A stretch of DNA of 61,835 nucleotides from a virus (taxonomy: Duplodnaviria > Caudoviricetes). The position numbers and the translations under genes are program-made. Positions 7,354 to 30,950 of this stretch are shown piece by piece (position 1 is the stretch's first letter; the number at the start of each line of letters is the position of its first letter). The stretch is from positions 1-61,835 of IMG/VR virus record IMGVR_UViG_3300044816_000047; one strand, 5' to 3'. The notes under the pieces were generated by a model. It was not told where the DNA came from. It made no database searches and saw only the letters and a list, made by a program, of their open reading frames with translations.

Positions 7354-8444
7354 GCAAAGAACTGGGACTGCGCGATCATCTGGCGGCGGCCGGCATCTAT
7401 CACGCGGCGCTGCACGAAGGGGATATGACCCGCGCGGAAGCAATGATGCTGAACGGACACGACCATATTTCGGCCCTCACGCGCGCGGCGATCCTCAACT
7501 CGCTAGAGCAGGGCGACCTCACGCTGGCTGAAATCGAAACCATCTTCGGCGAAGGAGTCCTACACCATGTTTACGACCAGCCAGTATCAGGAAGCAGCGA
7601 AGCTGCTGAAAACGAGAGCGTCGAAGAGCAAGGACCAGATGCAGAAGACGGCGGCGCTGAAGAAGGCGACGACGTTCGCGGCGTTGGCGAAGATCACGAC
7701 GAAGGCGACGCCGGACCCGTCGCCGACGCCGAAAGTGAAGGTGTCGAATCCGCCGAAGACGAAGTGGGAGCTGCCGCCAAGTCCAAAATAGAGAGGCTAA
7801 CCAATCTGATCGATCTTGTCGTCAAGGAACTGCGCGAGATCGTCAGCGAGCCTGCCGAAGAGAAGGTCGAGAATGGAGACGGCAGTCGTTCCGCCCCGGT
7901 CGTAGTTGTGTCCTCCGATGACATTGCCCGCGCGGCCGAGCGGATCGACGGTGAAGCGACGGAGGCCCAAAGGGTCGCTGGAAATTATCGAAAGGCGCAT
8001 GTGCAATTCGACGGTTTTGATCTCACTATTGAAACGCCCAGAGGCGGCATCCGGACCGGCAAGCGCGAAGACGGCAGCGAGTGGAAGGTTAAAATGCCCG
8101 CCGCCTACGGATACCTGAAGCGCACGGCCGGCGCCGACGATGAACAGGTTGATATCTTCCTCGTCGACCACGCCTCGCCGGGTCGGGTTTTTGCGATCGA
8201 CCAAATCGACCCCGAGACTGGTATGTTCGACGAACACAAAATAGTTCTAGGCGCGCGATCGGAGAGAGAAGCACGCCATATCTACGGGCGGGCCTTCTCT
8301 GATGGATCTGGACCGACGCGCATCGGCACACTGACGCAAATGACGTCTGACGAATTGCGGGAATGGCTACAGTCGGATGGCGGCAAAAAGCCGATTGGAG
8401 ATTTGCCGCAGCCCTACGAGGCTAGACGTCAGTCAAATCTTTGA
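7350..8444 (+). CDS. Acidic protein with C-terminal inorganic-pyrophosphatase-like domain of phage polyvalent (DarB-type) proteins
   Basis: TEAQRVAGNYRKAHV...LTIETPRG..RTG..W...MPAAYGY..RTAGADDEQVDIF...IDQ...FDEHKIVLG; D/E-rich middle. Confidence 0.7.
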   Translation: MSKELGLRDHLAAAGIYHAALHEGDMTRAEAMMLNGHDHISALTRAAILNSLEQGDLTLAEIETIFGEGVLHHVYDQPVSGSSEAAENESVEEQGPDAEDGGAEEGDDVRGVGEDHDEGDAGPVADAESEGVESAEDEVGAAAKSKIERLTNLIDLVVKELREIVSEPAEEKVENGDGSRSAPVVVVSSDDIARAAERIDGEATEAQRVAGNYRKAHVQFDGFDLTIETPRGGIRTGKREDGSEWKVKMPAAYGYLKRTAGADDEQVDIFLVDHASPGRVFAIDQIDPETGMFDEHKIVLGARSEREARHIYGRAFSDGSGPTRIGTLTQMTSDELREWLQSDGGKKPIGDLPQPYEARRQSNL

Positions 8445-8577
8445 TGATATCGGGAAGCTTCTTCTCCAGTTCGAGAAGGGTTTCGGCTTCGGTCACAAGC
8501 CCCGGAAGGTCTGGGCTCGTAGCGACCCAGACTTTTGCTTCGTCGTCGAAAAATTTATCGATGCGAGGTTCCGTCAT
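8422..8577 (-). CDS. DUF1902 / HicB-like small protein (51 aa)
   Basis: DDEAKVWVATSPDLPGLVTEAETLLEL motif; ATGA overlap with the upstream gene. Confidence 0.75.
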   Translation of the reverse strand: MTEPRIDKFFDDEAKVWVATSPDLPGLVTEAETLLELEKKLPDIIKDLTDV

Positions 8578-8690
8578 TTGGTCTCGCTCTGACGTTCGAT
8601 GAAGTAGATTTCGACACCGCAAAAGGCGCCAACCAGTACAAGCGCAACAAATGGTGCTAGAGCAGCAAGCGCTGGTAAGGAGAAAGTCAT
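8574..8690 (-). CDS. Single-TM micropeptide (38 aa)
   Basis: Manual translation MTFSLPALAALAPFVALVLVGAFCGVEIYFIERQSETK; ATGA overlaps at both ends; below the ORF-track cutoff. Confidence 0.6.
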   Translation of the reverse strand: MTFSLPALAALAPFVALVLVGAFCGVEIYFIERQSETK

Positions 8691-8857
8691 CGCTTGCCGA
8701 AATGCCAAGAAATGTCGGACGTTTTAATTGTGTAGGATTGCACGCCGGGATGCTTGGGAGTGCTGGTGCGCCAAACAGTGAAGCGGGCCAGACAGTAAAG
8801 AACTGCCAAGCCCACAAACGGCATGCCGAACGCGATCAATTGGTGTGCTAGCTTCAT
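8687..8857 (-). CDS. Single-TM small protein (56 aa)
   Basis: MKLAHQLIAFGMPFVGLAVLYCLARF...; ATGA overlaps at both ends. Confidence 0.55.
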   Translation of the reverse strand: MKLAHQLIAFGMPFVGLAVLYCLARFTVWRTSTPKHPGVQSYTIKTSDISWHFGKR

Positions 8858-9078
8858 GACGACGCTCCGAATACGCTCTGGCCTATCAAATGTAAGCAGA
8901 CGCCCATGAATAGGCAAATAATAGAGCCTGCGACAATTAGGGTGGGGTCCGTTCCTTCAAAAATCTTGCTGTAAAGGAACGTCGCCAAGGGGCCTAATAT
9001 CCCTGTCGTAAGGAAGCCAGCTCCGACCATGTTGAGAAAGCTGGCGACCAGTTTCTTTCGCTCGTCGTCAGGGTTCAT
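8854..9078 (-). CDS. Two-TM small membrane protein (74 aa)
   Basis: DERKKLVASFLNMVGAG...ICLFMGVCLHLIGQ resembles small Rhizobiales membrane proteins. Confidence 0.65.
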   Translation of the reverse strand: MNPDDERKKLVASFLNMVGAGFLTTGILGPLATFLYSKIFEGTDPTLIVAGSIICLFMGVCLHLIGQSVFGASS

Positions 9079-9209
9079 GCCTTTTTTCGGGCCTTCTCAA
9101 TGGCTTGCTCCACCAGCCTCCGGATAGCCTCGGGACGACCGGGGAGGTCCTCTTGGGTTCGGCGCCAGGGCGAGGCGTGGAAGGTACGTCAAGGCAGTCA
9201 AGGCAACGG

Positions 9210-9238
9210 AGAGGGAGGCGTATCGCGCCTCCCTTTTC
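9210..9238 (+). terminator. Rho-independent terminator
   Basis: gggaggcg-tatcg-cgcctccc stem followed by tttt. Confidence 0.6.
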
Positions 9239-9260
9239 ATTTTGGAGAAGATGAGAATGA

Positions 9261-9665
9261 CTAGTTTTTCGTTGGCGATGGACCTTCTGAAACCGTGGGA
9301 AGAAGGTCAGTGCACAATCTACGTAAAATGGATAACTCGACCGCAAATACCAGATCAAGGTTTCCAAGCTTCATCGCAACAAACGCTTCTTGATTTGTGC
9401 GACCCGGCGAAAATCCCATCGATATCACCGGAATTGGATCGGAACGAAGGGTCTCTGACTTTTCAAGTTTCGGTGTCTGAGTGGCAGCATGCTTCTCAGC
9501 TTCAAGAATGATGCGGGACGCTAGCCGACTAAACTCTTGATTGGCGATAGCCACTCCTAAGGGGCCGTCGTCCATATTGAATACTAGGCCGGTGTGGGTG
9601 TCATTTATGGGCTGAACTGCCCACCCCTTGCTGGTCTTTAGATTGAGCTTCAGTTCCTCCGCCAT
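9261..9665 (-). CDS. Hypothetical moron protein (134 aa)
   Basis: Strong SD (gggagggg) before the ATG; divergent from the 9751 microprotein. Confidence 0.65.
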   Translation of the reverse strand: MAEELKLNLKTSKGWAVQPINDTHTGLVFNMDDGPLGVAIANQEFSRLASRIILEAEKHAATQTPKLEKSETLRSDPIPVISMGFSPGRTNQEAFVAMKLGNLDLVFAVELSILRRLCTDLLPTVSEGPSPTKN

Positions 9666-9750
9666 TTTCCCCTCCCATTTAATTTAGGGGATCGAACCAC
9701 CTCTGCGCGAACGAGTCCATCGGCGCAGTTCAAAAATATTGGAGAAAGAC

Positions 9751-9906
9751 ATGACGACCAAGAACTCTAAATTTGAAAAAGCAGCGTCGAGCGCCGCAAC
9801 GAAGAGCAATACTACCCACGGCGCGGCAGCCAAGGCTGAGATGCGACAAATGGAGCGTGAAGCGGCGCAACAGAAGCGTCCGGCTCCGAAGCGCACGTCG
9901 AAGTAA
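9751..9906 (+). CDS. Basic microprotein, copy A (51 aa)
   Basis: SD ggag; MTTKNSKFEKAASSAATKSNTTHGAAAKAEMRQMEREAAQQKRPAPKRTSK; paralog at 28919-29062 differs almost only at synonymous sites in the 3' half. Confidence 0.85.
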   Translation: MTTKNSKFEKAASSAATKSNTTHGAAAKAEMRQMEREAAQQKRPAPKRTSK

Positions 9907-10025
9907 CGCCACAAGCCTTTCCAGTCGAAATGCTTGAACTGCTCGCACCGACGCTCTTCCGGGCGTTCGCCTTCGCTTGCGTATTCGGCGCGGCGTTGTG
10001 GCTTTTATTGCATTAGGAGAAACGG

Positions 10026-10652
10026 ATGCTCGACCTTCATGGCATTTCGCAGGAATCATTTGACCTTATCGTTGGGTTCGAGGTTTCCAGTCGTGCGGCT
10101 TACGAGAAAACCTATCGACGGCCGGAGAGGCCTGGAGGGGCGTCCGGCATCACGGTCGGTATAGGGTACGACTGCGGCTATAGCACCGCTGCTGTGATCC
10201 GGCAGGACTGGGCAGGCAAGATCCCCGACGCAATGGTGAACGTCCTTTGCAGTGTTGCTGGCCTTACCGGCGACCGCGCCCAGGCTCAGCTTGCCCGCGT
10301 CCGGCCGCTCGTTGACGTGCCGTGGGGCGCTGCGCTTGACGTTTTCAGCAACGTCTCGATTCCGAAGTATCTGCGATCGACGGTCGGGGGTCTCTCTAAC
10401 TTTGATGAACTGTCGCCAACCTGCAAGGGCGTTCTGCTGTCACTGGTTTACAATCGAGGGGCTTCCTTCTCTGCGACCGGCGACCGCTACCGCGAGATGC
10501 GGAATATCAGGGATCTGATGGCCGCTAAGAAGTTTGCCGGAATACCGGCTGAGCTTCGCAGCATGAAACGGCTTTGGACAACGCCTAGCGTTCGAGGCGT
10601 TGCCATCCGACGCGAGCAGGAAGCCCGCATGTTTGAACAGGGACTCGCTTAA
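10026..10652 (+). CDS. Endolysin (lysozyme-fold, GH24/pesticin-like)
   Basis: FE...PGGASGITVGIGYDCG, LLSLVYNRGAS, MKRLW...RREQEA; SD aggag; followed by holin-like genes. Confidence 0.8.
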   Translation: MLDLHGISQESFDLIVGFEVSSRAAYEKTYRRPERPGGASGITVGIGYDCGYSTAAVIRQDWAGKIPDAMVNVLCSVAGLTGDRAQAQLARVRPLVDVPWGAALDVFSNVSIPKYLRSTVGGLSNFDELSPTCKGVLLSLVYNRGASFSATGDRYREMRNIRDLMAAKKFAGIPAELRSMKRLWTTPSVRGVAIRREQEARMFEQGLA

Positions 10653-10680
10653 AATTTACCTCACTCAATTGGAGAATATT

Positions 10681-10992
10681 GTGGCTGTACCCTCTCAAGA
10701 TCAAGTCGTTGCTCAAATTCGCCTCATCATCCCGGCGCTTGGAATAATTGTCTCGGCATTCGGCATTTCGTCAACTTCGGTTGATCACTATTCGCAGGCA
10801 ATTCTGGTTGCTGCTGGTCCGATCGCTTATCTCATCACGGCCATCTGGTCGCTGTACGCAAATTCTCGCGCGTCGATCATGGCGTCTGCGGCAAAGCCCG
10901 TCGATGCGAATACTCCGGCGCCCCAGATTATCCTTCCCAAGGAGGAATCGGCTCTGGCCGCGACTCTTCCAGACAACGTTACAACCCAGTGA
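10681..10992 (+). CDS. Holin-like membrane protein
   Basis: Two TM segments directly after the endolysin; SD ggag before GTG. Confidence 0.6.
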   Translation: MAVPSQDQVVAQIRLIIPALGIIVSAFGISSTSVDHYSQAILVAAGPIAYLITAIWSLYANSRASIMASAAKPVDANTPAPQIILPKEESALAATLPDNVTTQ

Positions 10993-11003
10993 AAGGACCT
11001 CCC

Positions 11004-11453
11004 ATGCGCAAGATCATTCTTGCTCTAACGCTGACGCTCGCCCTCGGCGGCTGCGCCAGCTTGAATCAACTAGGCGAGAAGGTGCTTAACCTTCCGGCCG
11101 GATCGCTCACGACGACGATCAGCAATCCGGTTGCCCCGGTTAACATCTACCAGGCGAAAACGGTCTATGCCGCCACGCTGGAACTTGCGAACACTTACCG
11201 GGATTATTGCTACGGCAGACCATTCGCTGCGCTGATGGCCGATCCGGTAGCGAAGCCGGTCTGCAAGAGCCGCAGGAAGATCGTTCTTGCAATGCAGGCG
11301 GCAGACGACAAGGCGTTCGCCGCGATCAAAACGGCAGACAACTTTGTCCGCAGCAATCCAACTCTGGACGCTACCGGCGCGATCCGCGCGGCGATTGCGG
11401 CTGTGACTGAGTTCCAGAATATCGCAACCACAACTGCCAAATCCATCAACTAG
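11004..11453 (+). CDS. Lipoprotein of the lysis cassette (spanin-like)
   Basis: Signal peptide with lipobox LGG-C. Confidence 0.6.
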   Translation: MRKIILALTLTLALGGCASLNQLGEKVLNLPAGSLTTTISNPVAPVNIYQAKTVYAATLELANTYRDYCYGRPFAALMADPVAKPVCKSRRKIVLAMQAADDKAFAAIKTADNFVRSNPTLDATGAIRAAIAAVTEFQNIATTTAKSIN

Positions 11454-11464
11454 GAGCGACCACA

Positions 11465-11770
11465 ATGGCTGATTTCAAAAGTCTGCTCAGCGCAGTCACA
11501 ACCGCTCTTGGTGCCATCAGCGCTGCCGGTAATCTTCCGGGCGTAAATCTGATCCCATATGTCAGCACTGTCGCGAGCGCGGCAGGCCTCTTGCAGTTCG
11601 CCATCGAGAAGGGGATGAACGTAGCCGACGATATCGCGGCGCTCAAGGATACGTTCTCGAACGGCCTCCCGACGCAAGACAAGATCGACGCACTCGACGC
11701 TCGAATTGAGGCTCTGCGTACCAAACTACACGCGCCGCTTCCTCCGAAGGAAGATGGCGAGGACGAGTAA
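11465..11770 (+). CDS. Lysis-cassette hypothetical protein
   Basis: SD aggag; amphipathic helix plus coiled coil. Confidence 0.6.
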   Translation: MADFKSLLSAVTTALGAISAAGNLPGVNLIPYVSTVASAAGLLQFAIEKGMNVADDIAALKDTFSNGLPTQDKIDALDARIEALRTKLHAPLPPKEDGEDE

Positions 11771-11851
11771 ATCAGGAGGCTATTAGCGTTCGACTGTCTG
11801 GGAATGGTTCCTAGCGGACAAGGGTAAGAGGCTAGGAATGGGGAATGCCAA

Positions 11852-12118
11852 GTGGATATTTTACAGGAGTTCCTGAAGGCGTGGGGGCCTCCGGGTCTGA
11901 TCGCCGTGATCCTATGGATTTTTCTTTATAAGTCGGAGCGACGTGAGGAAAAAAAAGACGCCCGAATTCAGATGTTGGAAAATCAGCTTCGCGAAAGTTA
12001 CGACGAGAGGATAGAAGCGGCCGACAGAATAGGCGAAGCCATCCACGGCAGCGCTATTGCGGCTAACAACGCTGCGAGAGCGCTTGAAAGCCTAGCCGCG
12101 GAAGTCAGGTCAAAATGA
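11852..12118 (+). CDS. N-terminal TM coiled-coil protein
   Basis: TM followed by a coiled coil; coupled to the next ORF. Confidence 0.55.
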   Translation: MDILQEFLKAWGPPGLIAVILWIFLYKSERREEKKDARIQMLENQLRESYDERIEAADRIGEAIHGSAIAANNAARALESLAAEVRSK

Positions 12119-12321
12119 TGAACGCAATAGTGAACCAGTTCCGCAGGATTTATTCCGACTACGGGCAGAACGATAAAGACTTCACCGATCAGGAAACAAA
12201 GCTGCGTGAAGCCAGGACCAAACTTGCGAATGCAACACAAGAGTTGATCAAGTCGTCCATGCGATTGAACGATGTCGTTCTTGCTCACGGATTTGATCTT
12301 GATAAAGGTGAAATTCACTGA
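12115..12321 (+). CDS. Hypothetical protein
   Basis: ATGA overlap; co-oriented. Confidence 0.5.
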   Translation: MMNAIVNQFRRIYSDYGQNDKDFTDQETKLREARTKLANATQELIKSSMRLNDVVLAHGFDLDKGEIH

Positions 12322-12323
12322 CT

Positions 12324-12695
12324 ATGGGCAACAAGAGCGACTTAAACGTCTCCCTTAGAGAGCACTTCGAGGCACTGCTAGACGCCAATGATCGCCGCTA
12401 CGCCGAAGTAAACACAGAGCGCGAGAAGGCGCTAAAGATCAAGGAAACGGCAGACCTCGCAGCCCTCCAACTAGCGAGAGAGATTCAATCCTATAAGGAC
12501 GAAAAAGCCAACCAACTGCGCGAACAGATCAACAGCGAACGCGGGCTTTACGCGACCAACAAGGATATTGAACCCCTGAAGACCTACATGGCCGGGCAGA
12601 CCGGCCGCGGTCTCGGGATGAATGCGCTGTTCGGATGGGCCATGGCTATCCTGATGCTCGGCGTTGCTATAGCTGCCGTATATGTACGGCGCTAA
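12324..12695 (+). CDS. Coiled-coil protein with C-terminal TM
   Basis: SLREHFEALL...DRRY pattern; C-terminal TM. Confidence 0.6.
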   Translation: MGNKSDLNVSLREHFEALLDANDRRYAEVNTEREKALKIKETADLAALQLAREIQSYKDEKANQLREQINSERGLYATNKDIEPLKTYMAGQTGRGLGMNALFGWAMAILMLGVAIAAVYVRR

Positions 12696-12925
12696 CTGTG
12701 CCATCCGCTGTCTTCGAAGCCGAATGCCTCGCCACCACCAAGCTATCAGACGGCAACGAGATGGCCCTGATAATGCATGGCGGCGAAAGCGTCATAAGCA
12801 GTCTGCATCATTCGAGCGGGATACTGGTGCGCGGCAAGTTTTATCGCGTCACGTTCGAAGAAATTCCACCACCAATCACGGCGATGTCGCCATGAGCATC
12901 ACAAGCTAGAAGGAAATGGTTAGTC

Positions 12926-13354
12926 GTGACGGACGAAGAAAGACGAAGGAGGGCTGCGGAGCGGGCGCGTATCCAGCGAGCTAAAGACCCGGATAAGGCT
13001 CGGGCTAGTTGGCGAAAATGGGCTGCTGCTAATCCTGAAAAAGTCAAAAATGCGAAAAGGCGTAAGCAGAGTTCAGAATGGTCTGCGGCTCGACCTTGGA
13101 AACGTCGGGAATATAAATTTGGTCTGTCTCAAGAGGCTTTCGACGCCATACTTCAAACTCAGAAGTTTGTTTGCGCATCTTGTAAAACGGATTTGAGGGT
13201 TATCCAAAGTAAAAATGTTCACGTCGATCACTGCCATGCCACAAAACGAATACGCGGCATTCTTTGTCATTCCTGCAATACATCGCTTGGATTGATGAAG
13301 GAGGATTCGAATCTTCTTCTGGGACTTATCTCTTACATTGAGGGCTTCAAATGA
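12926..13354 (+). CDS. Endonuclease VII-family (HNH-type) nuclease
   Basis: CASC...HVDHCH...IRGILCHSCNTSLG; AT-richer than flanks. Confidence 0.85.
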   Translation: MTDEERRRRAAERARIQRAKDPDKARASWRKWAAANPEKVKNAKRRKQSSEWSAARPWKRREYKFGLSQEAFDAILQTQKFVCASCKTDLRVIQSKNVHVDHCHATKRIRGILCHSCNTSLGLMKEDSNLLLGLISYIEGFK

Positions 13355-13599
13355 CCGGATGTTTCTCGCTAGGCTGGATTGAACAGCTTTGTATCTGGCT
13401 GATTATGGTGATCGCACTAGTGGCGATTATCAAGTTGTTGGTGCCGTATCTCACTGGATTGATTGGTGTCCCGATCGTGGCCCAAATCATCAACATCGTA
13501 CTGTGGGCGGTCGTCGCCATTATGTGCGTCTATGTCATCTTTGCGCTCATCGCATGTTTGATCGGCTCCGGCGGTGGCCTGATGCACTTTCCCCGCTGA
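13351..13599 (+). CDS. Two-TM membrane protein
   Basis: Highly hydrophobic 82 aa; ATGA overlap. Confidence 0.6.
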   Translation: MTGCFSLGWIEQLCIWLIMVIALVAIIKLLVPYLTGLIGVPIVAQIINIVLWAVVAIMCVYVIFALIACLIGSGGGLMHFPR

Positions 13600-13664
13600 G
13601 TCTCAGGTCGATCCATTGCCACCAATGCCTCCGGCTCCGCCGAGCATTTGTAGAGGATGTTGAG

Positions 13665-14000
13665 ATGCAAAAGCGCTGGTATCACCATTTCATCCCGGAC
13701 TACGAGGTCCTATGCCGGATGGAATCTATCGAGAGAAAAATGGACCTTATCATCGAAAATCAGGAGAATATTATGGCTACACTCGACGAAGTTCTAAAAG
13801 ACGTGACCGATGAAGCGACGGCAATCGACGGCATCTCAACTCTGATTGCCGGACTGAAGCAGCAGCTTGCAGACGCGCTTTCTGGCGCAACGCTTCCCCC
13901 GGCCACGCAAGCCAAGGTGGACGCTATCTTCGCACAGGCGGAAGCCAACAAGGCGAAGATAGCGACGGCACTGGAGCCCAATCCTACCGCCACACCCTAA
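13665..14000 (+). CDS. Coiled-coil hypothetical protein
   Basis: MATLDEVLKDVTDEATAIDGI...; alternative start at 13773 with SD aggag. Confidence 0.6.
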   Translation: MQKRWYHHFIPDYEVLCRMESIERKMDLIIENQENIMATLDEVLKDVTDEATAIDGISTLIAGLKQQLADALSGATLPPATQAKVDAIFAQAEANKAKIATALEPNPTATP

Positions 14001-14060
14001 CCACTACCGGGCGCGAGCATCACCGCGCCCACTTTTCCTTCCATTGCATCACGAGGAAAC

Positions 14061-14558
14061 ATGCTCCGCATCATTCTAGCGGTCGCCGTGCTATGCGCGC
14101 TGACCATCAACGCCGAGGCCCGCAAGCGAACCATCGTGGTTGATCCTATGTGCAACATTACAATGCCATGCGAGGGTGTAACGACATCTCCCCGAGGCGA
14201 GCTGGTCGTCAAGGCCATGGGAGGTTTCGGGACCGCTCAGAAGGTCTATAAGCCGCGCGCTGAAGTCATCGGGGGCAGGCCAAGCGGTTGCCCCAGAGCG
14301 TTCTGCGGCTGCGGCGCAAGCCTTCAGGTATTCGGCAAGATCATCCCGGCTCTAAATCTGGCGGACAATTGGCTGCGTTTCCCTAGAGCTGCGCCAGCGC
14401 CGGGGATGGTTGCAGCTCGACACGGGCATGTGTTCGTTTTGAAAGAGCATCTGGGCGGCAATGTCTGGTTAGCACACGATAGTAATTCGGGCCGACACCT
14501 CACGCGCCTGCATCCTCGATCGATCGCAGGCTACTCAATCGTCAATCCTCATTCCTGA
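14061..14558 (+). CDS. Secreted CHAP/NlpC-like protein
   Basis: Signal peptide; GGRPSGCPRAFCGCGAS...HGHVFVL...HDSNSG (Cys/His dyad), a type I recall from Bradyrhizobium genomes. Confidence 0.6.
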   Translation: MLRIILAVAVLCALTINAEARKRTIVVDPMCNITMPCEGVTTSPRGELVVKAMGGFGTAQKVYKPRAEVIGGRPSGCPRAFCGCGASLQVFGKIIPALNLADNWLRFPRAAPAPGMVAARHGHVFVLKEHLGGNVWLAHDSNSGRHLTRLHPRSIAGYSIVNPHS

Positions 14559-14643
14559 ATCCGCCGGGGATGCCTTCTCCTGCGGTAGTTGAGCCGAGTT
14601 CTTAGCCACTCTGTTCAATGCCCTCCCTAGCCTTGGGCCGCGC

Positions 14644-16692
14644 TCATTCCTTCGGGAGTGGCGCGGCCTCTTTTTCTTTAGGAGGAAACAGGTAGTGAAA
14701 CATCTTCAGAGCCGGTTCTATATCACCCGGAAGTTTGCGGAGTTCCTGTTCAAACTCTTCCGGGGTGAGCGCCCGAGCAATTGGCTTCTGTTCTGGCATT
14801 AGTTTCATTCCTGTTTTATGACGGTTTAGCCCACGGCTCCCATTCCTCAAAGAACATGAAGCCGCATTGAGAACAGCGCGATCCAATCCAGCCGAAGCCC
14901 TTGTGCGGCACTTTCAAGGCTTCGTGTTCGGCCTCGCATACCCGCCGTTCGTCCAGCCGTTGTTGTAACTGTTCATCGGTCATTGTGTCGCTGCTCAAAA
15001 CCTCGGTCCCAACCACCAGCGCCGCAACTTGCGGCGAAGCCTATCGAAAATTGTAAACACCATAGCTGCTGTTCCTGCTCAAGAACGCTGTAGTGCGACA
15101 ATATTGTCCATCCGAATAACAGCCAAAGCGGCCTTCGCCTGCTTAGTCCATTCCTTGTTTTCGGCTATTTCGTAAATGTCCGCATATCTCATCCCGTGTT
15201 CCTTGTGCAGATACTCGACCAAAGCCATGCCGGCGCCGCACCAATAGCTTTCTTTGGCGCGCAGGCGGTTATAATCGTCGAACACCTTTTGGATTTCCTC
15301 GTCGGTCATGCGTGGCATGTGCTATCCTCGGTCAGGATCGGATACGCTTCAAATCTTCAGCGTAGTTATCGACTGTGCTTGAATTGTACACATGGTCTGC
15401 GACATCCGCCGCCCATTCAGAGGCCTCTTCAAATGTCGGGAACGTCCGGTTAGGCACGCCACCCCCAAAGGACACCTCAAAACCTTTCAGGGTATCGGGG
15501 TTGCCCTCGGTGTACTCCGCTGAAATTACTGCAATCGTTTGGTCACTGCTCGGCATCAGCTTGCTCCATTCGTTACCGGGTGACTATGCAGTGGGTGGGA
15601 GTTCACGGCGGTCCCTGCATAGCCATCTGCCCATCCGCCGTAGTCCGAGGGCGTCAACTTTCGCTACTGATGAATGGTTAGGTGGTGCATCGCCTAATCA
15701 TTTTTCACTTTTTGGATACTGACCTTCAGCATCTCGCTGCGCCCATCCGCCGAGATCAGGGCGAAATTCCCAAAAGTCAGAGTTGACAGCCAGCACCCCC
15801 AAAATATCGAAATCCCTTTTCGCCGTCGCCGTTCTAATCAGGTAGCGCCCATCCGGTAGAACCTCGGCGGGAACGTGTCGGCGCCTGTCTCTTCCGAAAC
15901 CGCCGATGGTTTCTGGCGGTTCTGGCAGAAGCGTTGCTTTATTGCGTTCTCCGGTCATCGTGCCTATCCCTCTCCGTCACCCTTTGCCCGCCGCGCTTTA
16001 GGATTCCGCTCGTGATAATCAAAGGAGCACGGCCCTCCTGCAAGTTTGCACTCCATCATACGCTGCTTTGTTGGTTCTGGGCCTGTGCCGGGGTCGCAAG
16101 GACAAGACGGCATCCGCTCAAATGGCATATTGACAATATCTTCGCTCATGTTCCGTCTCCATTCGTCAAAGCGCTACTCATTACCGCGATTGTCTCCGCA
16201 ATCTTCTGGACAAGATCAGAAGCGGCCACGGGATCGACGGCGAGGTTGTTATCTCGGCACCAATTCCGAAAAATCTTGCGCCCGATTTCAATGTCTTGCC
16301 TGGTCGGTTTGGGAGGCATCAGAGGTTCCTACTGATGACGGTTGATGCGCTTCAGGTGGTCAATGATCGGTTGGGCTCGCTCTTGGGCCGTGTGCTGTCG
16401 CCAAAGTTTCAAGCCGGCACGCTTAACCAGCACTTCGCGGCCATCCAACTCCACAATTTTGCAGTATGCCCCGGCATCATGGTTATAGCCGAGGCTTTCC
16501 ACTACCTTGCAGAAGGCCAGTCGCCCATCATCACGGATCACATTTATCTTGCCGCTCATGCCGCGCCCTTTCCGTCACCCTTTGTGGCTACTGAATAGTG
16601 ATGTGGCCGGCGAGTATCCAGACCGCGAAGGCGGCGCATATTCCGAGATAAATTTTTACTGCCGGGTTCAATCTGATCCACCAGTTTCTCAT
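14644..16692 (-). CDS. Cluster of ~9 small accessory ORFs distal to the candidate attP (e.g. 15079-15318, 15332-15556, 15698-15958, 15964-16149, 16146-16319, 16329-16559)
   Basis: Tightly packed minus-strand ORFs with SD motifs; no recognisable domains. Confidence 0.5.
15672..15705. terminator. Hairpin terminator (possibly bidirectional)
   Basis: aatggttaggtg-gtgcat-cgcctaatcatt followed by a T run. Confidence 0.45.
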
Positions 16693-16721
16693 GGGGTCTC
16701 TCCGTTGCCCTTTGGGAATGG

Positions 16722-17342
16722 TTATGCCGCCAAAATTTGTTGTAGTTCGCGCGTTGTGGCGGCCATGCAGACTACCAGTAGCGGCGGCGGGTCCGGTCGG
16801 TTCAAGTTCTCTATTTGCTCGATCAGAAGGCTCGCCCGGAATGTAATCGCAAAATTGCCCATGTGCTTCGTCCGAAGCGCGATCAGAGGCGGGATAAGTG
16901 GGTTGACCTGATTTTTCTTTTCGGCGCGCGGCGGCATCATCGCTGCTTTCGCCCCGATCTTCTTGGCTCGTCGGATGAAGGCCAACAGATCCGGCTCGGG
17001 CCGGAACATCTCGGCGCCATCAATTCGGAGGTGGGAGAAGCGATGATGGGTTTCAAACTCTCCGGCCACCGATCCCGGAACTATCGCCAGAATCTTTAGA
17101 TCCGGCCACGTTTTCCGGTGCTGTCTGATCCTTGTCCTTGGCTTGGCAGTCATGCCGATTTTAATGCGGTCTCCCAAATGAAGGAAGTAAGTCCACCCAT
17201 GAACATCCGGGGAACGCTCCCGTGTCAGTTCTGTGTCACTTTTCGCGGGTGTTCCCGCATCGTTCACGCCAAACTGGCACGAACCTGCAAGCTCCGAATT
17301 GTCAGAAGTGCCGGTATTTGTTGGTTTAGTTGGATTTTTCAT
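16722..17342 (-). CDS. GIY-YIG / T5orf172-like nuclease (true start probably near 17200)
   Basis: TYFLHLGDRIKIGMT..PRTRI...E..THHRFSHLR..GAEMF. Confidence 0.7.
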   Translation of the reverse strand: MKNPTKPTNTGTSDNSELAGSCQFGVNDAGTPAKSDTELTRERSPDVHGWTYFLHLGDRIKIGMTAKPRTRIRQHRKTWPDLKILAIVPGSVAGEFETHHRFSHLRIDGAEMFRPEPDLLAFIRRAKKIGAKAAMMPPRAEKKNQVNPLIPPLIALRTKHMGNFAITFRASLLIEQIENLNRPDPPPLLVVCMAATTRELQQILAA

Positions 17343-17447
17343 AATAAGTCGCGGCCCTCGTCAGGGGTGAAGATATGGGTTAAGAAGCCCTTATTTTACG
17401 GGCACTTCTTGCATTTGGTTTAGTCGGCTGTGTCAGATTTGTGCCAG
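17221..17447. other. Candidate attP with integrase arm-type repeats
   Basis: Paired YGTGYCA(G/C) repeats 11 bp apart at 17221/17232 and 17429/17440, an inverted copy at 17274-17281, AT-richer centre, at the integrase 3' end. Confidence 0.5.
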
Positions 17448-18384
17448 AAATCAGATCCGGCAGCGTCTTGTCCTCGTTAGCGTGTCCGTAGGTCTCCAGA
17501 ACGTGTCGGGCGCTCTTCCAGCCGCCCAGCTTGGCAATGGTCACAACGTCCACCCCGCGGTGCAAGAGTGCCGTAGCGAAGCCGTGGCGGCAGCTATGGA
17601 AGGTCAGGCGATCAATCTTGGCCCGTCGAACAACTGCATCCCAGACGCGGTAGCAGTTCGAGCGAGAGGTATAGAGGAAGACCGGACGATCCTTGATCTT
17701 CTCGATGTTCGCCAGCGCGACGACGAGGGGCTGCGGAAGATGCGCCCGCCGCTCGGCGCCGATCTTGGTCTGTCGGATCAGGACAGTCTTGGCCTTGAAG
17801 TCGATATCCTCCCAGCGGACCCGTAGCGCTTCAGTCACGCGGGCGCCTGTCAGGAACATGAACAAGGCCAGTCCGCCAAGGTGCGGTGTCGAGTGCTTGG
17901 CGAAGGCTTGGCACCATTCGAGGGTTGCAGGCAGTTTGCTTTTGGTTTCGACCTTGAACCGCTTCACGCGGATGCGCGGGCACATCTCGGATTCCGCGGC
18001 GTGGTTGATGATTGCCTGCATCGGGACAATGGCTTGTCGATTGCGGGTGGCCGCTGCCCCGTTCGGGTAAAGCGTCCGGGCCGCCGTCTGGATAGCGCCT
18101 GGGGTAATGTCCCGCACCAAAGTATCCTTCCAGTAGTCCTCTAACCGCTCCAGAAACCGCATCGGCTTCTTGGCAGCGCGGTACGCAATCGACGCCTGCG
18201 CGAACGTCAGGACCGCCGCGGGGCCATTGACACGACGTTTCCACGCTTTGTCCGCAATCTGGGCAGCGATTTCTGCGGCTCTTTCTTTGACCGCTGTGCC
18301 CGTAGAGCCGCGTAATCGCCCGACACCGGGAATTGTGCCCCGGTAGTGGAAGACGCCACCTCGCTTGTAGATTTTAAGGGACAT
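17380..18384 (-). CDS. int: Tyrosine integrase
   Basis: TGARVTEAL (R), K, FHSCRHGFAT (HxxR), LGGW, TYGH catalytic set. Confidence 0.95.
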   Translation of the reverse strand: MSLKIYKRGGVFHYRGTIPGVGRLRGSTGTAVKERAAEIAAQIADKAWKRRVNGPAAVLTFAQASIAYRAAKKPMRFLERLEDYWKDTLVRDITPGAIQTAARTLYPNGAAATRNRQAIVPMQAIINHAAESEMCPRIRVKRFKVETKSKLPATLEWCQAFAKHSTPHLGGLALFMFLTGARVTEALRVRWEDIDFKAKTVLIRQTKIGAERRAHLPQPLVVALANIEKIKDRPVFLYTSRSNCYRVWDAVVRRAKIDRLTFHSCRHGFATALLHRGVDVVTIAKLGGWKSARHVLETYGHANEDKTLPDLISGTNLTQPTKPNARSARKIRAS

Positions 18385-18551
18385 GGCCGGCTCGCTTCCA
18401 AAATGGCGTCAACATCGGCTTTGGTAAGAGTCATACGATTACCCAAAACCCGGCACGCGCCAAGGCGTCTGGCGAGGTCGCGCACACGTCTTTCTGACCA
18501 TCCCATGTGCTGGGCGAGGGCTTCCGGAGTAGTGGTTTCTGGCAATGTCAT
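18207..18551 (-). CDS. xis: Excisionase-like HTH protein
   Basis: TPEALAQHMGWSERRVRDLAR HTH; overlaps the integrase start. Confidence 0.65.
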   Translation of the reverse strand: MTLPETTTPEALAQHMGWSERRVRDLARRLGACRVLGNRMTLTKADVDAILEASRPCPLKSTSEVASSTTGAQFPVSGDYAALRAQRSKKEPQKSLPRLRTKRGNVVSMAPRRS

Positions 18552-18639
18552 AACGCTAATCTACGCCTTCAAATCAGGTTGGCTAGTGGGCCGGTGCACG
18601 ACTCCGCAGTCCTAGGTCGCGACTGAACAAAAAATATTT

Positions 18640-21600
18640 TCACTTCTCCACAGTCGTCCCGTCCTGCGAAGAAGCAGAACGTGCCTTCAGCCATTTTTCG
18701 AGCGCTTTAAGGCCAGCTATGTTGACGGCGTAGATCGCGTCTTGGCCGCCGTTTATGAATCTGCGAAAGTCCCAATATGGAGAGGCTTCAAAATTCCTCG
18801 CCTGCGGGCCGCCGGCCGTTGTGCAGTAGTAATTTCGGTAAGCGGTCTTCAATGAGCCCTTGGGCCTTCCGATGGCATGGTGCATGTCGTCGAAATCTTC
18901 ATCAGTTAGGGTCACGGCTTTCCTCCCACAGGAATGCCTACCCTGCGCTGCACGATGTAGGTTTTGCCGTCTGGTCGTTGAAGGTCGCAGCGATCGGTAT
19001 CCTTGATCTGGTCCTCATTGCCGGTGTACTCGAGATCCTTCTGCTTGGGATCGACGCCACGGATATCCCATTGCATCGCGATCTTCTTCGGCAGTTTGAT
19101 CTCGCACTTGCCGTTGGCACTGTCATAATCTCGGTCGCGCACAAAAAACTTGCATGAGCCGCATGTATTCGGCTCCGCGCTGCAACCGACCGCCAATGTT
19201 ATTTCACTTGGCATCGGCGCTCTCCTGGGGTGACGGAGGGGCTGCATTTAGCGCCTTCAGTACATCGCTCAACTCCCTACACTCAACGCCGTCTACTAAA
19301 TAGGTGGTCTTGTGGATTTGCTTGACCTTGCGAGAGTGACCATCACCACTCTTGATGACCGCGAGACGAGGATAAGTCGTGCTCTGGTAATGATTCTCAT
19401 AGGCACCGTGCGCCATGTCGAGACACAGCGTTCCGCGAAATTTGGCGTTAGCCTTGAGGTCCGCCAACGTGATTGGCTCACTCGCTGTCACAGGAGATGA
19501 CGGGTTAGCGGTATCGGTCATAGTGATCCTCCTCGGCGCGGCCGCGGGCGTCGGCCTCCTGTTCGCGCATTGCGTATTGCGTATTGAGCCTGTCGCGAGC
19601 ACTCTCTTGCGCCACAATGCTCAATGTCGCCGTGGTAATGTTCATAAACGCCAAGTTCTTCACCGCACCAAAAACAATGCTGCATCCGCTTCATGTGGCA
19701 TTCCCTCCCTAGCTCGCAAAAAAGACAAAAGCTAAAAGCCCTACCAACCAACTATTGTTGTCGGTCCAGATCGCCATCGGGATTGCGCCGACGAGGGCGA
19801 TAAGCATTACGGTCATGAACAGCCAGACAGATATTTTGGCCCACAGGTCGGTCATGACTTGCTCCCGTCAGGCCCATACCTGCGCAGCGGGCTTTTGATC
19901 GTGATCGGGCGCCGAGTCGGCCGGTCTGATTTGGGCCGCCGCACGCGCTTGCGCTTGACCATTTCGCGGGGGTAGAGCTTCACGGCTTGCGCTCCATCGC
20001 ATCTGCGATACGTTCAACAGCCGTCACAAAGCGATCTACCATATCCAATGTCATGGTCATTTCGGTGCGCTGCCGCATCATCAAGTCCATATCTTTCAAC
20101 TTGTCGCGCTCAGCTTTGCGGGCTTCGTATTGCTCTTTCGGGGTCATGTCGCACCGTCGCTTTTGGGGGAGGAGAATGGCGATGCCTTCATCGGCTCGAC
20201 TTCGACCAAGGTCAGTACGCACCAATTCCAATCATTGCGCTGGCGGATAGCAATCGCTACGGGCTGGTTTTTGTGCCATAGCGTCGTGATGTTGCTGTCT
20301 GTCACGTTCTGGCAAGTGATCTCCGACCCCGGCTTTCCTTTGAGACCGAGCTTGTTAACAATCGCTTCCATCCACATCTGGCCGATGCTCGCCACTTCTA
20401 TTTCGTCCATAGCCATCATTTGCTGGACTTTACTCATGGGCGTTCTGCCGATGTGATCGCGAGGGCCGGCAAGTCAGCGATTGGATGCCAGTGTGTTGCC
20501 GTGTGGCCGCACCATCGCAACATCTCGCTCTCGTCAAAGCCGTCCATGCGTTTGTCCAGCCAACGGGCTTTGCCATCGGTGCAGACCACTACGTCATCAA
20601 GGGCTGGGATTTCCGTCTTCAAGTCGATCCAGCCCAAGCCCTCCGCTGCGGCCTTGGCATATTGGGTGCGTCCTGTGTCCATGTCAGCGATGTTGTCCAT
20701 CGCGATCCATGCGAGTTCGGTTCGATCTTCGATGTTCATGCCGCAGGCTCCCCGTCACCCTTAACAACTGGCAGGGCCTCAAACCGACCGTCTTCAAATT
20801 CTTCCTCCCAACGGACCCAGTATTTGCCATCGTCGCAGCGGTAAACGATCATCGTAAAGCCTTCGATCACGTCACGATCTGCTTGCAATTCGGCTCGGCA
20901 AATTTCGGTGTAGGTTGATCCGCGCTTCTTGTGCCGCCAACGACGGGGCAGTTGCTTGTCCTCGACCGGAACGCGAGCGTCCTCGTATTCGTTGACCGTT
21001 ACCGGGCCAGTCTCAATCATCTCGCTTGCCCCTTGGGAGAGGGCGCGAACTTCGGTGGCAATTCGAACTTGGTCGAAAATTTGCAAGGCCACAGCAAGCC
21101 CGCTCGCGCGGCCAGCCTGCCAACTTCGATCACTCCATCCGCTGGTCGTTTTCGCAATTTCTCCCCATTTGCCGTTTTCTTCGTTGTGCGCCGCCGCCAA
21201 CTTCGCGCGGATATCGTCGATCTCCTGCTGCAACGCTTGAAACGTCGGGCAAACCCCAACCGACAGCGCGTCTTCATGGCAGCACTCGGATTCGATCTTC
21301 TCCCGCGCCCCATCCTGTAGCGCGATGCCTGCGGATTCAAAGTCGCAAATCATCGCCGCGTAGTTCCGTCGCGACCATCCGCCCTCAGTGTAATTCGGGC
21401 CGGTTGCTGGCGGCTCTTTCGGCCAAGCCTGTAGCGGTGCGGCGAGGGCGGCCTCCAGCGCGAAGCGAGCGGAATCCCGGAAGGCGTTAGCATTAGGCTT
21501 TGGAACATCTTCCCATTGTGGCGGCGTGCCGTCCCAATGTTGCCCGCGCTCATACATAGCCCGCGCGCCAGCCTCGATCTGCGCAGGGGTCGGCTTTAAT

Positions 21601-21740
21601 TGGGCAGGACGGGAAGGGCGGGAAGGGCGGTCCTCGCGCGGCGTATCCCGGTATTGCCCGCACTTCATGCAGCGCTGGTTTTGTCCGTCCGTCTCCGGCC
21701 AGATTTTCCAGTCGTGCTCGCAGGGTTGGTTGGCGGTCAT
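18640..21740 (-). CDS. Early-left accessory ORFs (18640-18915, 18912-19247, 19204-19521, 19980-20147, 20144-20437, 20434-20739 DUF551-like, 20736-21740 mosaic protein)
   Basis: Chain of overlapping minus-strand ORFs; THWHPI and RWRHKKRGSTY motifs seen in phage early proteins. Confidence 0.55.
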
Positions 21741-22432
21741 CGCGCTGCCTCCAGCATGTAACCAAGAACTTCCGCCATTACTGGCGGGTTGCTGTCGCCT
21801 AAAGCTTCGATTGTTTCCCGTCGCTCAAGCACGTCTTCGGAGCGCCAAGTATCCATATCGAAAGCCGGGATGGAATCCGGGTGCCAATCACCTCGGGCCA
21901 GGGCTGCCCCCTTGGCGCGCTCAATCGCTTGTGGTCCCGCTTGCCAGGCGATCTCCAGTCTCGGCAGACTGGTGCAGGCAATAAGGTACACTCGCCGGCG
22001 CGGATAAGGTGCACCAACATCCGCAGCGCCGAAGACAAATCTGGCGACGTGGTAGCCAGCTCGTGAAAGGTGGTTAGAGACCTGCGTCTCCCACGCATCG
22101 TTTCCGGGCGGCTGCTCCACGATAAACCATTCGACACCGGCATTGAGCCCCGCGCATAGCATGTAGGGCCAGAGAGAAAGGCCGGTCCGATTGCCACTGA
22201 TGGCGGCGCCGACGCTGGTTTGCTGGCAGGGCGGTCCTCCAAAAATAACATCCGCTGGAATGGCGGGCAGGGTGCGGATGTCGTCATAGATCGGTATCTC
22301 CGGGTAGAGCCACGCAAGTTCCTGCTGTCGCCTAGTTTTGGACTCGCAGAAAGCAACAGTTTCGAACTCGCCGGCACGGGCCAAGCCGAGCGCGTGGAAG
22401 CCAATACATGAGAAGACATCCAGCACGCGCAT
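21737..22432 (-). CDS. C5 cytosine DNA methyltransferase (orphan, short)
   Basis: LDVFSCIG (motif I), GGPPCQ (IV), VEQP (VI variant), RRRVY (VIII), LGDS (X). Confidence 0.85.
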   Translation of the reverse strand: MRVLDVFSCIGFHALGLARAGEFETVAFCESKTRRQQELAWLYPEIPIYDDIRTLPAIPADVIFGGPPCQQTSVGAAISGNRTGLSLWPYMLCAGLNAGVEWFIVEQPPGNDAWETQVSNHLSRAGYHVARFVFGAADVGAPYPRRRVYLIACTSLPRLEIAWQAGPQAIERAKGAALARGDWHPDSIPAFDMDTWRSEDVLERRETIEALGDSNPPVMAEVLGYMLEAAR

Positions 22433-22947
22433 CAGTTTCTTTCCGCAGCCGTTAAAGGAAGTGCCTTCGCTCGTTTCGCCATTTTCCGCTCCCGGCGATC
22501 CTTCGCCGCAATGATGGTTGCTAGATCACTGGGCAGGGGCGACGACCGCCGATCGCGAAGGCGGCCCCATGCTTCGGAGATTTCCTCGATGGTGCAGGGC
22601 CGACCGATGCGTCCAATGACGGCGATGATAGTTTCTTCAACATCGACCGATATTCCGCGAAGGCGCGGGCGTCCTCGCCGGTCAGTCTCAGGAAGGTGGT
22701 ACGGTATTGCCCATTTTCCCATGTAATCCCTGACAGCCGGGTCATTGACCTTGGGGCCAAGGGACCAATATCGCCCGTTAATCCGCTTCTCTGATTTGAA
22801 GTATTCATGTTTTTCCGCTCGCTTCAGCATCCGGTCGATGCGGGCATTTTGCCGATGATCGTAACAAAGACGGTAGGGCGCAGCCTCTTTGCCGCAGAGC
22901 GGGCATTGCCCTGCTAGAATCCGCTGCTGCTGAAGAGGTGTTTTCAT
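22432..22947 (-). CDS. Zn-finger-containing hypothetical protein
   Basis: CPLC...CYDH; basic. Confidence 0.55.
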   Translation of the reverse strand: MKTPLQQQRILAGQCPLCGKEAAPYRLCYDHRQNARIDRMLKRAEKHEYFKSEKRINGRYWSLGPKVNDPAVRDYMGKWAIPYHLPETDRRGRPRLRGISVDVEETIIAVIGRIGRPCTIEEISEAWGRLRDRRSSPLPSDLATIIAAKDRRERKMAKRAKALPLTAAERN

Positions 22948-22965
22948 CGCCCTAGTTTCATTCGC

Positions 22966-23304
22966 TCAGAGAGAACGCTGATACGCGCGGGCGCGTTCGA
23001 GCGCTCCACCGAACGTGTGCGGACTTCGCGAAAGTACGGTGAAGCGCACGTCACGACCGGAACCAAAGATTTGACGCGCAGTCTGCGTGTAGCTTGATTT
23101 ATCCCAGTTGCCGGACGCCTTATCTGGTGCCCCAGTCCATGGGATATCGATGTCGGACATATATTGGCCGAGCAGGCACCGTCCCTCGCACTCCATAAAC
23201 TGATAGCACCCTTTCGGGTCTTTCGTTTCAAGCCACGCGATAAAGCCGGCGAGCGAAACGTCAGCGGTAATGAATTTGGCATCCCACTTCTTGTCGTAAA
23301 GCAT
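22966..23304 (-). CDS. Hypothetical protein (separated from its SD by the IS)
   Basis: MLYDKKW...FIAWLET..P...HTFGGALERAR; original SD aagggg now lies beyond the IS at ~25282-25287. Confidence 0.65.
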   Translation of the reverse strand: MLYDKKWDAKFITADVSLAGFIAWLETKDPKGCYQFMECEGRCLLGQYMSDIDIPWTGAPDKASGNWDKSSYTQTARQIFGSGRDVRFTVLSRSPHTFGGALERARAYQRSL

Positions 23305-23327
23305 TGGTCTAAACCATGCCTATCCGG

Positions 23328-23356
23328 TTGACACCCACAACTACTTGTGCTAGAGA
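23328..23356 (+). promoter_or_regulatory. Sigma70-like promoter in the left IR
   Basis: TTGACA-N17-TAGAGA with a TG extension. Confidence 0.6.
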
Positions 23357-23390
23357 ATAGGGCATAAGTTGGAACTCCAAGGAGGTTGTC

Positions 23391-23807
23391 ATGGAAGATA
23401 AATTGATGAGCCCAGCATTGTGGGTAATCCCCGGCGATGGAAACGCTAGAGACGATGGCTCTCTTGATGCGATGGCATGGAGGGAAGGGGAATTTACCCG
23501 CCCTCTTTACGAGGTGCCTTCTCTGATTTCTGAGATCGCATGTCGGCGACGGTTCCAGATAGCGAAGGGCTACGATGCCGCGCATGACGACAAACATGTG
23601 AATGGTGAGATTGCCCTGGCCGCGGCTGCTTATTGTCTGAGCGCCGCGCAGCACCCCGGAAAAGGCATACGCCAGACCCCTACTTGGGTGCCCCCAGCGT
23701 GGCCGTGGCATAGGGAGCAGTTCGATTTTGTAGACGCGAGGTCCAGCCTGCTTGATGCAGCGGCAATGATTATTGCCGAGATTGAGCGATTGGATCGGAA
23801 GGATTGA
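23391..23807 (+). CDS. IS passenger: phage-type helical protein
   Basis: RRRFQ..KGY...HDD.H..GEIA.AAAAY...WPW...LL.AAAMIIAEIERLDR, a family common in phage early regions. Confidence 0.7.
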   Translation: MEDKLMSPALWVIPGDGNARDDGSLDAMAWREGEFTRPLYEVPSLISEIACRRRFQIAKGYDAAHDDKHVNGEIALAAAAYCLSAAQHPGKGIRQTPTWVPPAWPWHREQFDFVDARSSLLDAAAMIIAEIERLDRKD

Positions 23808-23810
23808 GCG

Positions 23811-24848: not shown

Positions 24849-24895
24849 GCTTTCCGGGTTCGCCCTCACCGCAAAGTATATCGCCCTTATCTCTT

Positions 24896-25203
24896 TCATC
24901 CATTGTGGTTCACTCCATCTCCGACTTTGCCGCAATCTGCGCAGACTCCACCCACGTCATAGCGGAACCACCCTATGGTCGGAGACTCGCGGTGTGCATA
25001 GCGCCACCAGCAGCGGATACGTTTGATGTGCTGCATGATGCTCATGCTCGCCTCACTTCGGCTGCGGCAACTACGCCCGCTGAAAAAATAAGGACCGTCC
25101 AAACAGCGGTCGGAAAGTCGGAAAGGCCGCTATGACCCAGTAAATCCAGAGCGCGACCAATGCAAAGCCACAAAATTGCAAGTATTGTAAGTTTTTTCAG
25201 CAT
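24896..25203 (-). CDS. Two small IS passenger ORFs (53-aa two-TM protein; 49-aa Cys/His protein)
   Basis: MLKKLTILAILWLCIG... (SD gagga) ATGA-coupled to MSIMQHIKRIRCWWRYAH...CADCGK. Confidence 0.5.
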
Positions 25204-25309
25204 GGGGTTCCTCGATGTTCGCTTCAGTCATTTATCTATTCCTTGACGTTGTGGGTTACAACCGGATAAGCACGGTCTAAACCCCTTATTTAGTACGGTT
25301 TCGGCTGTC

Positions 25310-25801: not shown

Positions 25802-25804
25802 GGG

Positions 25805-28893: not shown

Positions 28894-28918
28894 CGTGGTC
28901 TCCCGTGGTGATCCGGAA

Positions 28919-29062
28919 TTACTTCGAGGTTCGCTTCGGAGCCGGGCGCTTCTGTTGCGCCGCTTCACGCTCCATCTGACGCATCTCGGCCTTAGCCGCG
29001 GCGCCGTAGGTGGTGCCCTTGCTCGACGCTGGTTTGGTTTCGGATTTGGGGGTCTTCGCCAT
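28919..29062 (-). CDS. Basic microprotein, copy B (47 aa), first gene of the PL transcript
   Basis: SD ggag; MAKTPKSETKPASSKGTTYGAAAKAEMRQMEREAAQQKRPAPKRTSK. Confidence 0.85.
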   Translation of the reverse strand: MAKTPKSETKPASSKGTTYGAAAKAEMRQMEREAAQQKRPAPKRTSK

Positions 29063-29099
29063 CTGATGTCTCCATTGGCTGATCTGAGCCGATGGGGAG

Positions 29100-29150: not shown

Positions 29151-29169
29151 AAATAGTTTTGGATGTGCT

Positions 29170-30941: not shown

Positions 30942-30950
30942 AGTCGGGCC

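Follow-up and report, generated by a model that had tools for sequence, protein, structure and literature searches.

A two-copy basic microprotein gene behind the PL promoter and upstream of putative lysis genes in an uncultivated soil phage

The two loci and their phage

Two small open reading frames (ORFs) with similar, basic products lie on opposite strands of the window, by which we mean the whole stretch of DNA that was analysed (61,835 bases, GC 58%). Copy A (9751-9906, plus strand; ATG at 9751, stop at 9904-9906) encodes 51 amino acids with a net charge of +8 and a pI of 10.75, and copy B (29062-28919, minus strand; ATG at 29062, stop at 28921-28919) encodes 47 amino acids with a net charge of +8 and a pI of 10.5. 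Both start codons are preceded, at a distance of 5-6 nt, by a GGAGA Shine-Dalgarno sequence. The window is an entire IMG/VR virus record with a direct terminal repeat of 127 bases and a completeness rating of 100%, and the view of a sequence-only reading that it belongs to a chromosomal prophage has to be given up: it is the complete 61.8-kb genome of a temperate phage. This genome carries a tyrosine integrase (17380-18384, minus strand), a RecT/exonuclease pair (26718-28120, minus strand), replication genes on the plus strand from about 32 kb, and a large terminase (41795-43576), which is followed by structural genes running past the end of the record to position 8444. The closest large terminase in GenBank phages reaches just 33% identity across one third of the protein's length, suggesting a temperate phage without a close cultured relative. 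Two DNA methyltransferase-like genes, one in each early operon (21737-22432, minus strand; 33585-34190, plus strand), are recognised by a C-5 cytosine methylase domain and by a match to a DNA methyltransferase family in PHROGs (E 1.8e-62), respectively. The late, structural region contains a group I intron (Rfam RF00028; 56166-56411, plus strand) that covers the full model length, scores 58.3 bits where the gathering threshold is 50 (E 3e-12), and adjoins two ORFs on the minus strand with a lower GC3 (54703-55290 and 55297-56181).

Copy A follows three minus-strand ORFs (8422-9665). The one divergent from it (9261-9665, 134 aa) was earlier called a moron gene; it has no match in Pfam, PHROGs, or NCBIfam and falls into no known family. 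An inverted repeat, TCCCCT-N12-AGGGGA (9667-9690), covers the Shine-Dalgarno sequence of this divergent ORF and forms a hairpin in the predicted fold, and may serve translational control or be the site of a regulator in the divergent intergenic region. Further along the same strand, the C-terminal part (8422-8570) of ORF 8422-8817 resembles a HicB-like antitoxin family of PHROGs (E 7.5e-4).

On its 3′ side copy A is separated by a spacer of 119 nt (9907-10025, plus strand) from a lysozyme-like gene. The spacer contains GC-rich stems and then a T-run (9986-10010), which together make a weak terminator-like site; such sites occur at chance level (5 found against 4.4 expected), and the fold of the spacer as a whole is not unusual (z -0.57). 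A hydrophobic ORF of 28 codons also lies inside it (9931-10017, plus strand). It was considered as a membrane peptide and rejected, having no Shine-Dalgarno sequence and a hydropathy below the transmembrane (TM) threshold, and it is probably no gene. The lysozyme-like protein itself (10026-10652, plus strand, 208 aa), of the pesticin/T4-lysozyme type, is a putative endolysin: it matches the Pfam Pesticin family with E 6.5e-4 and 20.1 bits, below the cut-off of 25.8, and the PHROG endolysin family with E 0.076. The best rows of a Foldseek search are a pesticin muramidase domain and phage endolysins, all with E of 0.27 or more and from a model of pLDDT 61, and no sequence match was found in the PDB. 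It is followed by a two-TM protein (10600-10992, plus strand; segments at residues 35-61 and 67-87) that is a holin candidate, although Phage_holin_10 is reached only at E 0.07, and by a lipoprotein (10989-11453, plus strand; LPAM_1, E 0.0033) that is a spanin candidate, with the Rz-like spanin family of PHROGs at E 0.031. Weak, concordant matches thus make it likely that the genes 3′ of copy A form a lysis cassette.

The sequence-only reading had described copy A as lacking an operator and as preceding the endolysin gene. The absence of the operator and the place upstream of a lysozyme-like gene both stand, and the identity of that gene as an endolysin is indicated by weak, mutually consistent matches. 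No CI operator occurs near copy A at three or fewer mismatches, the nearest lying within a gene at 8182. A search upstream of copy A detected no sigma-70-like promoter, and no promoter motif of the segment 9666-9716 recurs elsewhere in the genome, where the best other local score is 15 of 51. From its position at the head of the lysis genes and at the end of the late region, copy A would be expressed with them, be it from an activator-dependent promoter of its own or as part of the late operon. Three loci with relatives of the endolysin (86, 81, and 63% identity) resemble the window from the endolysin ATG onward only and have no small ORF like copy A upstream of the endolysin, suggesting that copy A is an addition special to this phage.

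The setting of copy B is better defined. A PL promoter, TTGACA-17-TATTGT (29100-29128, minus strand), agrees with the consensus at 10 of 12 positions and is the sole sigma-70-like site detected within 28000-32500. Two exact 16-bp palindromic operators, GTCGGATTTTTCCGAC, lie over and beside it (29107-29122 and 29135-29150), and three imperfect ones, with 2, 3, and 1 mismatches, lie between cI and a divergent cro-like gene (operators, 30853-30935; cro-like gene, 30951-31208). Seven sites with three or fewer mismatches are present in all, against 0.69 expected, a number reached in none of 100 shuffles. The CI-type repressor (30223-30852, minus strand) is an S24 peptidase (Peptidase_S24, E 4.7e-12; PHROG transcriptional repressor, E 2.6e-17). 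Hence the promoter and its two exact operators bear out the proposal that copy B is the first gene after a CI-repressed PL, the slot held by N in phage lambda; its stop codon lies 28 nt from the start of the next gene. Two small ORFs of 86 and 75 aa (29369-29629 and 29677-29904, minus strand), with no convincing family, lie on the cI strand between PL and cI in the position of rexA/rexB in lambda, and by this analogy are candidates for prophage-expressed exclusion genes.

Two viral contigs, L053 and L054, with cI identities of 83% and 78%, have the same repressor type, the same operators beside cI, and the same PL, but their first PL genes are unrelated to copy B. The L054 leader agrees with that of copy B at both ends (CCCATC... 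and ...AGCCAATGGGGAC) and is followed by an unrelated ORF of 63 aa, and in L053 a different leader precedes an unrelated ORF of 117 aa. Neither ORF has a PHROG family, and no second copy was found in the two records, which are only 54% and 27% complete. The differing ORFs suggest that small genes are swapped in and out of the slot behind PL within this immunity group, with copy B as one cargo.

Coding capacity and selection in the two copies

The sequence-only reading had reported that the two products end in the same 28 residues and that the final 31 codons differ by 10 synonymous changes and a single replacement (H/Y). Both ORFs lie where it had placed them, the identity of the C-terminal 28 residues is exact, and a recount of the differences gave the same figures. 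By codon position 1/2/3 these differences distribute as 1/0/10, which corresponds to a dS of 0.70 and a dN of 0.014 (Nei-Gojobori) over the last 31 codons, and in simulation one or no replacement arose in none of 100,000 random sets of 11 substitutions.

Nucleotide alignment shows that the homology is wider than the shared C-terminus and runs from the leader (9717 in copy A, 29095 in copy B) through the stop codon, with identities of 23/31 bases in the leader, 37/47 in the N-terminal coding part, and 85/96 in the C-terminal part. The N-terminal halves, on which the earlier note is silent, are therefore homologous as well; they are interrupted by three indels (3, 9, and 3 nt), all in frame, and the four lysines and the glutamate are retained in both. 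Over the whole gene 38 of the 45 aligned residues are identical (dS 0.61, dN 0.07), while the 14 N-terminal codons alone give a dS of 0.44 and a dN of 0.21. Beyond the unit there is nothing convincing, with 7 of 10 scattered bases matching upstream and 10 of 20 downstream. The conserved C-terminal module of copy A (9811-9906, plus strand, 96 nt), which comprises a predicted helix and a basic tail, is 89% identical to 28919-29014, a pair that no other repeat in the genome exceeds in length except the 127-nt terminal repeat. Judged from these comparisons, the N-terminal half evolves fast with its composition kept, and the C-terminal module is almost frozen.

Other frames do not account for the pattern. 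The antisense ORFs 9730-10059 (minus strand) and 28742-29260 (plus strand) were considered as the cause of the conservation and dismissed, their translations differing at many sites, and the +1 frame of the two copies has no conservation at the protein level. Given that the differences fall at third positions and the indels are in frame, protein coding is the sole reading that fits. The proposal that these are real paralogous coding genes under purifying selection is consequently upheld by the 10:1 synonymous excess, by dN/dS, and by the in-frame indels, and we are highly confident that copies A and B are a real, selected protein-coding pair. The codon comparison demonstrates that purifying selection on the protein keeps both copies and is very strong on the C-terminal 28 residues. 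That these residues are still identical at a synonymous divergence of about 0.6-0.7 argues strongly for a functional ORF, even though no relative is on record.

Leaders and the origin of copy A

Each copy is preceded by a short leader. That of copy A (CCATCGGC..., with the GGAGA Shine-Dalgarno sequence; 9717-9750, plus strand) is homologous to the PL leader of copy B (29063-29095, minus strand), the first base of which lies 5 nt past the -10 hexamer and 1-3 nt before the expected start site. A relationship between the two leaders had been noticed before and proves correct over the 23 matching positions given above; the homology begins at 9717, and the sequence upstream of this point is unrelated. 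Exact occurrences of a 16-nt leader motif, CCATCGGCNCAGNTCA, are confined to 9717 and 29095. There is no further exact occurrence in the rightward operon or the late region, and relaxed matches are no commoner than chance would give (11, with 8.3 expected).

RNA structure had been named as an alternative source of the conservation, and folding argues against it. The leader of copy B forms a hairpin of -9.9 kcal/mol that is not unusual (z -0.6), the leader of copy A does not fold (-3.5 kcal/mol, z +0.69), and a comparison of folds found no hairpin common to both. The folds of the conserved stretch itself are ordinary relative to shuffles (z +0.38 and -0.41), with different structures in A and B, and a search of 9600-10100 and 28800-29300 against Rfam returned nothing with E of 1 or below. 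As a separate observation, the PL leader of L054 (5743-5800 of that contig, plus strand) has a stable 5′ hairpin reaching into the Shine-Dalgarno sequence (-20.6 kcal/mol, z -2.6, equalled by 4 of 200 shuffles); the 5′ hairpins of L053 and copy B also end in the Shine-Dalgarno sequence and are statistically not unusual.

The leader also bears on the origin of copy A. Because it is found at the PL of L054 as well, it belongs to PL, and copy A carries such a PL-type leader without the PL promoter or its operators. Moreover, the stretch that copy A shares with copy B runs from the predicted PL start site to the stop codon. Copy A hence probably descends from a PL-linked unit that was moved together with its leader, the source being this phage itself or, through mosaic exchange, a relative. 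Given a synonymous divergence of 0.6-0.7, the move would be old, or the donor had already diverged. On the same comparison, the two copies have not been homogenised by frequent exchange since that event.

Relatives, structure, and possible function of the protein

The protein has no cysteine and no TM segment and would be cytoplasmic. AlphaFold2, run on the two-row alignment, predicts a single helix at residues 25-42 and leaves the remainder unstructured (mean pLDDT 69). On a helical wheel the predicted helix has a basic stripe (K28/R32/R36), a polar-acidic side (E30/Q33/E37/Q40/Q41), and a narrow non-polar stripe (A27/M31/M34/A38), and it is weakly amphipathic, with a hydrophobic moment of 0.26. 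Beyond the helix the tail is basic and broken by prolines, and the N-terminal part is rich in lysine, serine, and threonine.

The sequence-only reading had recognised no family, and neither did the database searches. Pfam, PHROGs, and NCBIfam returned no family for either copy, Pfam none even at E of 0.1 or less; among PDB sequences the top match spans 16 residues with E 0.6, and the best score in the ESM Atlas, 0.82, is below the level of a lead. A word-indexed search of 5.8 billion proteins found none at near lengths and 110 candidates among longer proteins, none of them with E of 1 or less, and a HMMER profile run against 1.84 billion representatives had one hit, copy B itself. At the nucleotide level, tblastn found no relative in GenBank phages and plasmids, none in 48 loci around relatives of the endolysin and RecT (best E 0.09), and none in 11 loci around relatives of cI, where the best row (E 0.025) is a frame of dissimilar composition. 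Peptide-pattern scans gave 121 pattern matches in IMG/VR, 272 in GTDB genomes, and 387 in JGI metagenomes, and none was confirmed. A profile search of whole related virus records was negative in all five, and one of two genomes gave a single row at E 0.39, not counted as a relative. Among 401 genomes, taken from the same class as an alphaproteobacterial MAG with a RecT relative, a row at E 0.0057 (per genome) was discarded as noise after translation revealed two internal stops. In libraries of such size a 28-residue motif becomes significant only if well conserved, and these searches accordingly speak to well-conserved relatives.

A sequencing-run search pointed to one soil-metagenome DNA run, in which 7% of the sampled words of the phage are present; over 9500-29400 it yields short contigs identical to the window, 9752-9902 included, and no variant copy of the gene among them. 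No RNA sequencing run containing phage sequence is listed by the same search. The family is seen in one genome only, that of an uncultivated soil phage, and comparison is confined to its two copies. Searches of the accessible full-text literature turned up no description of such a gene pair or of an arrangement at both an early and a lysis position. On these searches the two-copy gene encodes an undescribed microprotein with no relative found.

For the function of this protein we favour, with a probability of roughly 35% and from composition and position, an accessory protein of disordered, basic, helix-plus-tail type, which would bind a polyanion and be supplied both early and late. Its target would be a nucleic acid or a host machine bound to nucleic acid, which it would contact through its tail and through the residues K28/R32/R36 that make up the basic stripe of the helix. 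The same C-terminal module would be delivered twice, right after derepression and again with lysis, as the descent of copy A from a moved PL-linked unit suggests. An accessory rather than a core factor is indicated by the unrelated small genes that occupy the same slot in the homoimmune relatives.

The same strong conservation of 28 residues would also suit a specific interface with a protein, and a host-takeover or anti-defence peptide, whose helix and tail would dock on an acidic host surface (that of a protease or nucleoid protein, say, or of a division protein or defence sensor) and block it early and late, is a possible reading that we hold as doubtful. Temperate phages carry many small host-directed genes in their early-left operons, kil, cIII, and ral in the case of lambda; differing small ORFs in the PL slot of homoimmune relatives are what would be expected of accessory arms-race genes; and two methionines and two alanines do form a narrow non-polar stripe on the helix. 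CIII and Kil of lambda share with the present protein a length of about 50 aa, a place in the early-left operon, and one functional helix. CIII is an inhibitor of FtsH with a strongly amphipathic central helix, whereas the helix here is only weakly amphipathic, the protein is far more basic, and there are two copies; BLASTP gave no alignment to either lambda protein, or to lambda N, at E of 100 or less. Nor does PHROG, Pfam, or NCBIfam offer a match to such a peptide, and the high charge and a disordered half conserved in composition would be more typical of nucleic-acid binders. The sequence-only reading had named an N-like antiterminator as one possibility, beside an RNAP- or nucleoid-binding peptide and an anti-defence peptide, and a processive antiterminator in two operon-specific versions would have the shared C-terminal module engage RNA polymerase or a Nus-type factor, with the variable N-terminus or the shared leader tethering it to the nascent transcript so that each copy gives read-through in its own operon. 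Lambda N and its analogues in P22 and phi21 are likewise small, basic, largely disordered, and encoded first behind an operator-controlled PL with the leader accompanying the gene. The 16-nt motif at the 5′ end of both units, the weak stem and T-run between copy A and the lysozyme-like gene, and the division into a variable N-terminus and an invariant C-terminus, which would suit separate specificity and effector parts, also agree with this idea. Lambda N is disordered and has an arginine-rich N-terminal RNA-binding motif. In the present protein, however, the N-terminal halves hold four lysines and no arginine, all arginines being in the C-terminal module, and its 47-51 aa are under half of the 133 aa annotated for N. 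The leader hairpin is confined to copy B and ordinary, and the motif is missing from the rightward operon and the late region. A scan for intrinsic terminators found one weak site and no convincing one on the transcribed strand of 18400-29100 (10 overall against 13.9 expected from shuffles). The first PL genes of L053 and L054 are unrelated. Moreover, lambda has one N gene acting through two RNA sites, whereas here the gene itself is present twice. What remains in agreement with the proposal of antitermination is the position of copy B, as there is no similarity, no arginine-rich N-terminus, no shared hairpin, and no third occurrence of the leader motif; we regard it as unlikely.

Two further explanations give the peptide itself little or no part. 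The leader and short ORF could load ribosomes and couple translation or transcription to the genes downstream, the peptide mattering little, and it is true that both units head gene clusters with a strong Shine-Dalgarno sequence and that the leader travels with the ORF. Yet a ribosome-loading ORF would not hold 28 residues through 10 synonymous changes, coupling is unlikely for copy A given the 119 nt to the next gene, and the gap of 28 nt behind the stop codon of copy B also speaks against it, so that this device seems very improbable. Alternatively, the repeats could be small RNAs, structured leaders, or inverted repeats for recombination or inversion of a 19-kb segment. The two units are indeed inverted, 19 kb apart, and the longest internal repeat of a phage with its own RecT/exonuclease pair. 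In phage HK022 the N slot is filled by a small basic protein, Nun, and leader elements called put are duplicated close to the promoters of two operons; put acts as an RNA structure and requires no protein. In contrast to put, conservation here tracks codons and not base pairs: the differences fall at third positions of one frame (1/0/10) and the indels keep that frame, there is no unusual or shared fold and no Rfam match, and 89% identity over 96 nt with a dS of about 0.7 speaks against homogenisation by frequent exchange. A role as RNA or DNA element alone is thus hardly credible. At the other extreme, one might imagine a new class of very small regulator with a variable N-terminus and an invariant effector module, its two operon-specific paralogues acting in cis. 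Each paralogue, with the shared leader, would be encoded at the start of its own transcript (early-left or lysis) and act on its own transcription or translation complex, filling an N-like role with an unrelated protein of 50 residues, and the abrupt onset of homology in copy A at the PL start site would mark a functional RNA 5′ end. We consider this a long shot.

Whichever partner the preferred polyanion-binding protein may have, small early phage proteins are among the main sources of new inhibitors and regulators directed at the host, and homology searches miss most of them. Internal paralogy is a way to validate such ORFan microproteins, because the genome then supplies its own comparative test, and the present gene pair lends itself cleanly and cheaply to expression and pull-down work. 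Judged from the positions of its two copies, it would tie the immediate-early and the lysis transcripts of this phage together through one shared protein module and leader.
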